Shown in pieces: positions 3,920 to 4,644 of a stretch of 12,996 bases of DNA. Position 1 is the stretch's first letter. Every line of letters begins with the position of its first letter. This DNA is from a virus (lineage: Duplodnaviria > Heunggongvirae > Uroviricota > Caudoviricetes), in IMG/VR virus record IMGVR_UViG_2547132488_000019, positions 1 to 12,996 of that record; one strand, given 5' to 3'. The translations under genes were made by a program, and so were the position numbers. The notes under the pieces were generated by a model that saw only the letters and a program-made list of their open reading frames with translations, had not been told where the DNA came from and made no database searches.

Positions 3920-4644
3920 TACACAGCTCTCACAATATAGTTAAATGCAATATTACGAGGGCGAGATTCTCTCCCCCCCACCGAGTTAGTACTATCGGAT
4001 CTCTGTTGATTTACTGAGCCAGAAACATCAGCGGCTAAAAGATAATATCCACCTGTTGTATCAAATCCAGTTTGTGCCCATGTTCTTTCGAAATAATGAC
4101 TATGTGATTTAAATTCATCTGTTTGAGTTGATAATAACGCGCGCCCACTATCCACTCCACGCCCATCATCCCAGCCACGAATAAACTCACCGCGTAAATC
4201 AGGTAATTTATTTGTCGGGTAAACCCTCGCCAGTTTAGGATATTCAACGGCAGAAAAAGCCGCACCGTTACATTTCAGCCAGCCAGTAGGCGGTATTGCA
4301 GAAGGCCACGGAACAGGCACACCAACGGGTAATGCCGAACCTTCTCCCAAACCAAGGTTTTCGAGAGCCGTTTTCACCGTGCCATCCGATTTGATATCGC
4401 CAAACGGATTCTTGCGGCTTAACAGCAGCGCACGAAGCGCGGTAAGCAGCTGGTCATGCCGCCCCTTCTCCAGGCTGGCACCGGATGCCTCCACCACGCT
4501 GCAGAGTTCTTCCTGCAACATGTCAAAGTAGTCATCATCCAGATCGGTGGCAGGCGTACCAGTCTGGGGGTTACCACGGGTAAAACCGTTCTTACCCGCG
4601 CCGAACTTATCCTTCTGCGCGGTTTTCGTATCTATACGATGCAT
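3919..4644 (-). CDS. Tail fiber protein (short; tail-collar-type C-terminal receptor-binding domain)
   Basis: 241 aa; C-terminal ...[22 protein letters not shown]...[39 protein letters not shown]... resembles phage tail-collar domains; directly precedes tfa; GC-rich 5' part and AT-richer 3' part. Confidence 0.8.
4342..4367. other. Hin/Gin/Cin/Pin-type crossover-like site (TTCTCCCAAACC-AA-GGTTTTCGAGAG) inside the tail-fiber gene
   Basis: Core AAACC-AA-GGTTT matches hixL (TTCTTGAAAACCAAGGTTTTTGATAA as I recall it; about 20 of 26 positions). Lies at the compositional boundary inside stf and encodes ...[10 protein letters not shown].... No invertase gene is in the window. Confidence 0.35.

Follow-up and report, generated by a model that had tools for sequence, protein, structure and literature searches.

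The fibre switches of phages Mu (the G segment, with gix sites and gin) and P1 (the C segment, with cix sites and cin) follow the same logic, in which a 26-bp crossover site of the Din family is located at the junction between the constant (Sc) and variable (Sv) parts of the fibre ORF, alternative Sv and chaperone cassettes are carried, and a Mu-type tail module (gp44–48 homologues) lies upstream. Sites of this Din/Hin family (hix, gix, cix and pix) consist of two imperfectly symmetric 12-bp half-sites of the TTCNNNNAAACC type flanking a 2-bp core, either AA or GA, and the pattern of a pix-type site is TTCNNNNAAACC-NN-GGTTTNNNNGAA. The recombinational enhancer of the family resides inside the 5′ part of the invertase gene, and that of pin is placed there by family knowledge. 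The pixL and pixR sites and the invertible P segment of prophage e14 were reportedly described by Plasterk and van de Putte in 1985.

The e14 locus of Escherichia coli K-12 has the gene order stfP/ycfK-tfaP-tfaE-stfE-pinE, and inversion of its P segment of 1,797 bp has been shown at the repeats CCTTCTCCCAAACCAA and TTGGTTTGGGAGAAGG, driven by each of PinE, PinQ and PinR (PMC12529663, 2025). As for the reaction itself, wild-type Hin requires the Fis/enhancer element for activity, and the invertasome confines it to intramolecular inversion (PMC3798978).

Here we analysed a stretch of 12,996 bp (referred to as the window), which corresponds to the entire contig APZX01000167.1 of draft assembly GCA_000357685.2 and presents the locus in a single orientation. 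Its minus strand carries a tail-fibre gene of 241 aa (3919–4644, from the ORF list, with a Pfam Collar match at aa 108–155) and the tail-fibre assembly gene tfa of 200 aa (3317–3919; Pfam Caudo_TAP, E = 5.9e-30), cognate to the expressed Sv. Homologues of Mu gp48/YmfQ, gp47/J, gp46, gp45/V and gp44/P, a DNA circulation protein, a tape measure, a tail assembly chaperone and a tail tube are found upstream of the fibre gene, and the Pfam-based order of tape measure, DNA circulation, gp44/P, gp45/V, gp46, gp47/J, gp48/YmfQ, fibre, tfa, cargo and integrase is that of e14/SfV-like prophages. Because positions 1–23 align to the dusA 5′ end of strain D53-1 and are directly followed by a tyrosine integrase gene, the window belongs to a prophage at the dusA integration site.

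Compared with e14, the window has the same 26-bp pixL sequence at the same position of a homologous fibre gene, with ~96% identical DNA in Sc and preceded by the same ymfQ (Mu gp48-like) and baseplate genes. However, e14 has a pixR, a second Sv/Tfa cassette, pinE and an inverting 1.8-kb segment, none of which is present in the window, whereas the window prophage, unlike the defective e14, keeps the full Mu-type tail module and sits at dusA. Phage SfV (as well as SfI, SfII and SfIV) shares the backbone (97.8% over window 4341–9300) and the int-cargo-tfa-fibre layout, and SfV, like the window, contains the exact 26-mer once and no invertase (its fibre and tfa genes being orf21 and orf22). It differs in the Sv/Tfa module from the site onward and in its cargo, which is gtrABV as opposed to the DinI/peptidase cargo of the window; the tfa′ and pin stumps of the window described below do not align to SfV, in a comparison made from the window's stumps only. 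In Mu and P1 the site is only 18–20/26 identical to that of the window and the complete switch is carried. Finally, the P2-like phage pro483 (Peduovirus) has the window's Sv and tfa module at ~88% identity, bounded by the same crossover site, but silent within an intact invertible segment and on a P2-type fibre head and baseplate.

Two further features were seen outside the fibre region. An AT-rich insert (9643–10309, G+C 0.33–0.38 versus ~0.55–0.6 around it) separates the DNA-circulation and tape-measure genes and carries an ORF of 173 aa (9747–10268, minus strand; phrog_5586, no Pfam match); since this insert is absent from two otherwise collinear relatives (L216 and L218), it is likely a moron within the tail operon. 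An Rfam search of the whole window yielded nothing at the gathering threshold, the sub-threshold matches including a partial one to CssrB (Shigella sRNA B; 3152–3215, minus strand; 32 bits versus a gathering threshold of 76, E = 3e-4) that overlaps the repeated hairpin element found downstream of dinI and pin.

The crossover site and the seam of the fibre gene

The 26-mer TTCTCCCAAACCAAGGTTTTCGAGAG is located at window 4342–4367, within the minus-strand fibre gene, and occurs a single time when both strands are considered. It is identical over 26/26 positions to the curated pixL (Din-family table, PMC3241671 Table 3) and shares 21 of the 26 positions with pixR, 20 with each of hixL, cixL and cixR, and 18 with gix. 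The family architecture is present throughout, with an inner (variable-side) half-site at 4342–4353, the crossover dinucleotide AA at 4354–4355 and an outer (constant-side) half-site at 4356–4367. The identical 26-mer lies within stfP/ycfK of e14 in E. coli K-12 MG1655, where pixR adjoins pinE, and the 16-mer CCTTCTCCCAAACCAA, one of the e14 inversion repeats, corresponds to window 4340–4355, which is the first 14 bases of the site plus the two preceding bases.

A half-site weight matrix was derived from 13 curated Din-family sites, with pixL left out for this purpose; it gave the window site 28.4 bits, while authentic Din-family sites score 14–31 bits. The runner-up 26-mer in the window scored 9.5 bits, against a mean of 8.6 and a maximum of 18.3 bits in 100 shuffles. 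Identity over all 26 positions means that the motif corresponds to pixL itself, beyond mere similarity to a crossover site. Judged by its sequence, the 26-mer is a true pixL, the constant-side crossover site of the Pin members of the Din (Hin/Gin/Cin/Pin) serine DNA invertases. A search with the core pattern AAACCNNGGTTT at up to 2 mismatches returned 15 matches in the window versus 5.9 expected, the only exact match being the site; the others were ruled out as crossover sites, their flanking half-sites failing to conform.

On the minus strand the site encodes ALENLGLGE, from the second position of the A93 codon to E101 (codons 93–101; gene-sense reading CT-CTC-GAA-AAC-CTT-GGT-TTG-GGA-GAA), with the crossover dinucleotide falling within the Leu97 codon. 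It separates the constant N-terminal part of the fibre (Sc, 4368–4644, minus strand) from the variable receptor-binding part (Sv, 3919–4341, minus strand), which carries the Collar domain, and the G+C content is 0.55 at 4351–4650 versus 0.42 at 3901–4200.

Several comparisons place a mosaic boundary at this position. Within the phage collection, the homology of SfV-like phages (SfV, SfI, SfII, SfIV and others) to the window is confined to positions above 4340 and that of P2-like fibre/tfa modules to the stretch between 3265 and 4360–4366, and the two have only the 26-mer in common. An IMG/VR scan for the exact 26-mer yielded 119 loci, of which 89 distinct neighbourhoods were anchored on the site to obtain an identity profile. 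Identity to the window in this profile was 1.00 at the site and ~0.55 just below 4340, on the variable side; on the constant side it remained at 0.91–1.00 per 8-nt bin over 52 bp, up to ~4419, before decreasing to 0.75 because two fibre-head types exist. The PHROG matches of the fibre protein were likewise split at aa 98–104, with one group extending from aa 1 to ~98–116 and the other from aa ~72–118 (and later) to aa 241.

The earlier note, which was made from the letters of the window, had read 4342–4367 as a Hin/Gin/Pin-type crossover site at the junction between a GC-rich constant and an AT-richer variable part of the fibre gene. The alignment to curated hix, gix, cix and pix sites that it had proposed, the base composition and the position of the boundary all bear out this reading, and the fibre mosaicism breakpoint whose absence it would have held against the site was found across relatives to coincide with it.

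The constant-side conservation delimits a block of ~80 bp (4340–4419), comprising the site and 52 bp of constant-side coding sequence, that is common to fibre genes of different prophage backbones. As an 84-nt query, this block was present in 1,771/5,426 complete E. coli genomes, and it is likely, as inferred from these comparisons, to serve as an anchor for homologous exchange of fibre modules between phages. A second mosaic boundary was noticed at 4419/4420, which is 52 bp inside the constant part. Past 4419, roughly one in four of the site-sharing fibre genes depart from the window and continue into a different head (for example the FJ_Ec_21 and P2-like types). The portable unit is thus bounded by the 80-bp block and not by the 26-mer alone.

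Intact relatives and the remnants of a lost switch

Complete switches were found among close relatives of the window prophage. On the same backbone, L002 (JX21CE8) has the 241-aa fibre, tfa, tfa′, Sv′, pixR and pinE, and three further assemblies (L216–L218) encode an identical 241-aa fibre together with pixL, an inverted pixR and a gene with Resolvase and HTH_7 domains. The inverted pixR of these intact siblings reads TTCTCCCAAACCAACGTTTATGAAAA and, among relatives, lies 1.5–1.9 kb downstream of pixL (1.5–1.8 kb in L216–L218). The same Sv/tfa module is present in pro483 in an invertible segment adjoining a DNA invertase, and in strain UTME-7 (E. coli) the window's Sv and tfa lie in the opposite orientation beside an intact recombinase. 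The inverted homology between the window and UTME-7 stops at 4355, which is the crossover dinucleotide, and a flip of the UTME-7 segment would, from these alignments, yield the fibre of the window.

The window itself lacks the second inverted site, the serine invertase (Resolvase and HTH_7), the Sv′/tfa′ cassette and the cis enhancer of a complete switch. On either strand of the whole window, no second 26-mer came within 8 mismatches of TTCTCCCAAACCAAGGTTTTCGAGAG, and neither this search nor the weight matrix revealed an inverted partner site above the shuffle background. The ORF list contained no ORF of invertase length between tfa and the peptidase gene. Moreover, L002 4043–5471, the stretch that carries pin, pixR and Sv′ as well as the tfa′ 5′ part, had no aligned counterpart in the window; this includes the 5′ part of pin (L002 4043–4585), the enhancer region in the family.

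Short remnants of the missing parts could nevertheless be recognised at the junction. Of the second (silent) cassette, nothing is left but an 81-nt stump from the 3′ end of tfa′ (3265–3345, plus strand), identified by homology to intact tfa′ genes that sets in precisely at 3265 in dozens of loci; the annotations of D53-1, FJ_Ec_21 and WP8-S18-CRE-02 list the equivalent stump as a tail fiber assembly pseudogene with a truncated N-terminus. The last 12 nt of pin (GDK and the stop codon) persist at 3186–3197 on the minus strand, with weaker similarity to ~3206 (up to ~21 nt in all). This vestige matches L216–L218 at 100%, and window 3156–3197 equals L002 4001–4042, where the annotated pinE has its 3′ end. 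The two remnants are separated by a 67-nt filler of uncertain origin (3198–3264), whose full length was matched only in other locked loci (L004, L005, L047 and L110) and which showed no convincing alignment to pin alleles or tfa′; 53 nt of it (3213–3265) are 100% identical to a sequence that precedes Hok/Gef toxin genes by ~190 bp on several plasmids of E. coli, such as pUMNK88_Hly. Relative to L002 and L217, the deletion amounts to ~1.3–1.4 kb. A Pin-made deletion was rejected because no pix-like sequence is present at its end points (1.6 bits at 3192–3217).

An internal pin-like fragment of 28 nt (3019–3046, minus strand; ~codons 104–115, ...GALSEME...) adjoins an S24 peptidase pseudogene fragment and aligns to the truncated recombinase pseudogene of AMSHJX01. 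The latter has the same fragment junction, and in it a 345-nt N-terminal pin pseudogene and both pix sites survive; the 28-nt fragment of the window was carried in with the peptidase cassette. In L001 (NZ_CP030939.1, 5556–7883) and similar genomes (H2–H10), both pix sites and both cassettes are present, but the same peptidase/S24 cassette has cut the recombinase down to 115 N-terminal codons, so that this switch would be flippable only by an invertase in trans. Read side by side, these loci form a decay series, from the intact switch (L002, L006 and L216–L218), via a stage in which the invertase is dead but both sites remain (L001 and similar genomes), to the orphan site (the window, D53-1, FJ_Ec_21 and SfV).

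The cargo at the prophage end consists of a 365-aa tyrosine-type integrase (112–1209), DinI (1271–1519) and an SDH/ClpP-like serine protease (1789–2793), all on the plus strand and assigned by Pfam and the annotation of relatives, followed by an S24 peptidase pseudogene fragment (~2843–3017, minus strand) known from the annotation of relatives. Next to it, element R2 (3066–3187, plus strand), as aligned to L001 and L004, contains a second copy of the dinI 3′ end (17 nt, 3066–3082) and of its downstream hairpin region, and over its whole length it aligns, in relatives, to the 3′ end of dinI and the sequence that follows. An imperfect direct repeat, D3, of 83% identity (1523–1575/1584 versus 3126–3178/3187) brackets the peptidase cassette, and window 1523–3046 forms one aligned block in L001. 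The protease cassette is accompanied by the dinI 3′-end duplicate, the S24 fragment and the 28-nt pin fragment, and looks like a moron exchanged via recombination in the repeat. A scan of 1400–3400 for promoters and terminators revealed only a terminator-like hairpin past the peptidase gene, of no relevance to the site.

It was not this cargo that displaced the switch. UTME-7 carries an integrase, DinI, SDH protease and S24 fragment like those of the window (99.4% over 1734–3187) and still has an intact recombinase and invertible segment, indicating that a separate deletion removed the switch of the window; an IS903B copy is inserted in the UTME-7 equivalent of 1523–3187. In D53-1, the integrase and DinI are followed directly by the junction, stump, tfa and fibre of the window, without the peptidase cassette. 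The window itself looks like a recombinant of the UTME-7 and D53-1 types, as far as its alignments tell, and the join appears to lie inside the ~120-bp repeated element (dinI 3′ end and hairpin) with copies at 1523–1584 and 3066–3187.

With respect to the earlier note, its statement that a single fibre/Tfa pair is present, with neither partner site nor invertase, agreed with our searches, although the short tfa′ and pin vestiges had escaped it. Its idea that the cargo had taken the place of the invertase and alternate cassette does not hold in view of UTME-7. Its suggestion of a fibre module locked after loss of the invertible segment, on the other hand, is supported by the intact siblings, the tfa′ and pin scars, the pixL identity and the breakpoint.

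Prevalence and drift of orphan sites

The frequency of the orphan state was estimated in two samples. Among 53 evaluable IMG/VR loci (those with the exact 26-mer and a variable-side flank of 2.7 kb or more), an inverted partner was found in 41, of which 23 also had a full-length pin, while 12 had no partner (10 of these without any pin), SfV itself being among the orphans. When 70 evaluable e14/SfV-type fibre loci were picked by the fibre head protein (aa 1–88) alone, 32 had an inverted partner and 38 were orphans. None of these 38 orphans carries the junction of the window, which indicates that the switch was lost several times independently.

Across the 70 loci, the constant-side half-site was invariant in the orphan and paired groups alike, whereas the variable-side half-site had a median of 11.9 bits in the 38 orphans versus 15.9 bits in the 32 paired loci (Mann-Whitney p = 4e-4, relatedness ignored). 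The lower scores of the orphans fit a relaxed constraint after loss. The window copy is one of 9 still-perfect orphans, unlike the many that have drifted, so its own inertness is not shown by decay. In data with one genome per species, the exact 26-mer was confined to Escherichia and Shigella, bar one doubtful metagenome-assembled genome.

Explanations for the orphan site and their implications

We consider it very probable that the window carries a true pixL that was orphaned by a deletion, leaving the fibre locked. In intact relatives, following the known mechanism of the family, Pin dimers bind pixL and the inverted pixR 1.5–1.9 kb away, assemble with the Fis-bound enhancer on a supercoiled branch, cleave at the central AA dinucleotide and, after a 180-degree rotation and religation, flip the segment. 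Such a flip joins the constant fibre head (aa 1–97) to one of two receptor-binding tails, each with its own Tfa. In the window, the ~1.3–1.4-kb deletion took pixR and the silent Sv′ together with nearly the whole of pin and the greater part of tfa′, and the pin 5′ portion, where the family has its enhancer, was lost with it. As a single site remains, with neither an invertase nor the 5′ region of pin, we infer that the fibre is fixed as a single isomer, Sc joined to the Collar-domain Sv, with its Tfa. The site would then act only as coding sequence and as part of the homology block for module exchange, and it is predicted to be recombinationally inert.

A more active role, along the lines of the in-trans use that the earlier note had also suggested, would be possible if the Pin-family invertase of another prophage used the orphan pixL in trans, together with a pix-type site elsewhere on the chromosome, resulting in a large inversion or deletion or in the capture of a fibre cassette. 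The site is indeed perfect, pin-like DNA occurs in 3,128/5,426 (58%) complete E. coli genomes, some genomes have two or three pixL blocks, and the inversion of the e14 P segment by each of PinQ, PinR and PinE indicates that trans action on pix pairs is real (PMC12529663). However, the wild-type enzymes depend on a Fis-bound enhancer and a pair of sites within the same supercoiled domain and invert intramolecularly only (PMC3798978). In the window a partner is lacking, no quasi-site rises above the shuffle background, and the 5′ region of pin is gone. As a single site without a cis enhancer cannot be inverted, trans use is mechanistically disfavoured, and the drift of orphans on the variable side points to relaxed constraint instead; we therefore regard it as improbable. 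A related and slightly more speculative idea, for which we would give even less, is that perfect orphan pixL sites are kept as docking points that PinE-, PinQ- or PinR-like invertases occasionally pair with the pix sites of other prophages. If this were true, large programmed chromosomal inversions or new fibre cassettes could result, and a fibre that appears locked could be re-armed.

Since the window is a whole contig of a draft assembly, the missing segment might also reflect the short-read collapse or mis-join of an invertible region present in two orientations. The junction (window 3170–3300) nevertheless recurs in seven complete E. coli genomes and two IMG/VR contigs, at 97.7–100% identity, and on at least two prophage backbones, FJ_Ec_21 having a different, DUF2612-type baseplate backbone at a different chromosomal site next to ybhB. 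Moreover, the 67-nt filler is foreign to intact segments and would not be created by a collapse. An assembly artefact is thus very hard to reconcile with the data, and the deletion is real and fairly old and has travelled as a module. Least credible of all is that the motif merely results from conserved codons without any history as a recombination site, even though the fibre ORF contains the whole 26-mer and no relative, with or without invertase, differs in the constant-side half of the site. This reading is refuted by the 26/26 match to pixL, which includes synonymous positions, by the sharp mosaic breakpoint at the site edge, by the inverted homology that stops at the central AA, by the siblings with an identical protein that have pixR and pin, and by the pin and tfa′ vestiges in the window.

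The preferred reading, an orphaned pixL in a locked fibre gene, has little significance past annotation, because pixL is a published element and its orphan state is common, being already present in the published SfV genome. For annotation, it implies that a Hin-family site in a fibre gene does not by itself equal phase-variable host range, and that the partner site and the invertase should be checked. The locus further illustrates how such a switch decays, from an intact switch over a truncated invertase with both sites to an orphan site, and the 80-bp block containing the site forms a seam at which receptor-binding modules move among e14/SfV-like, P2-like and other myovirus prophages.
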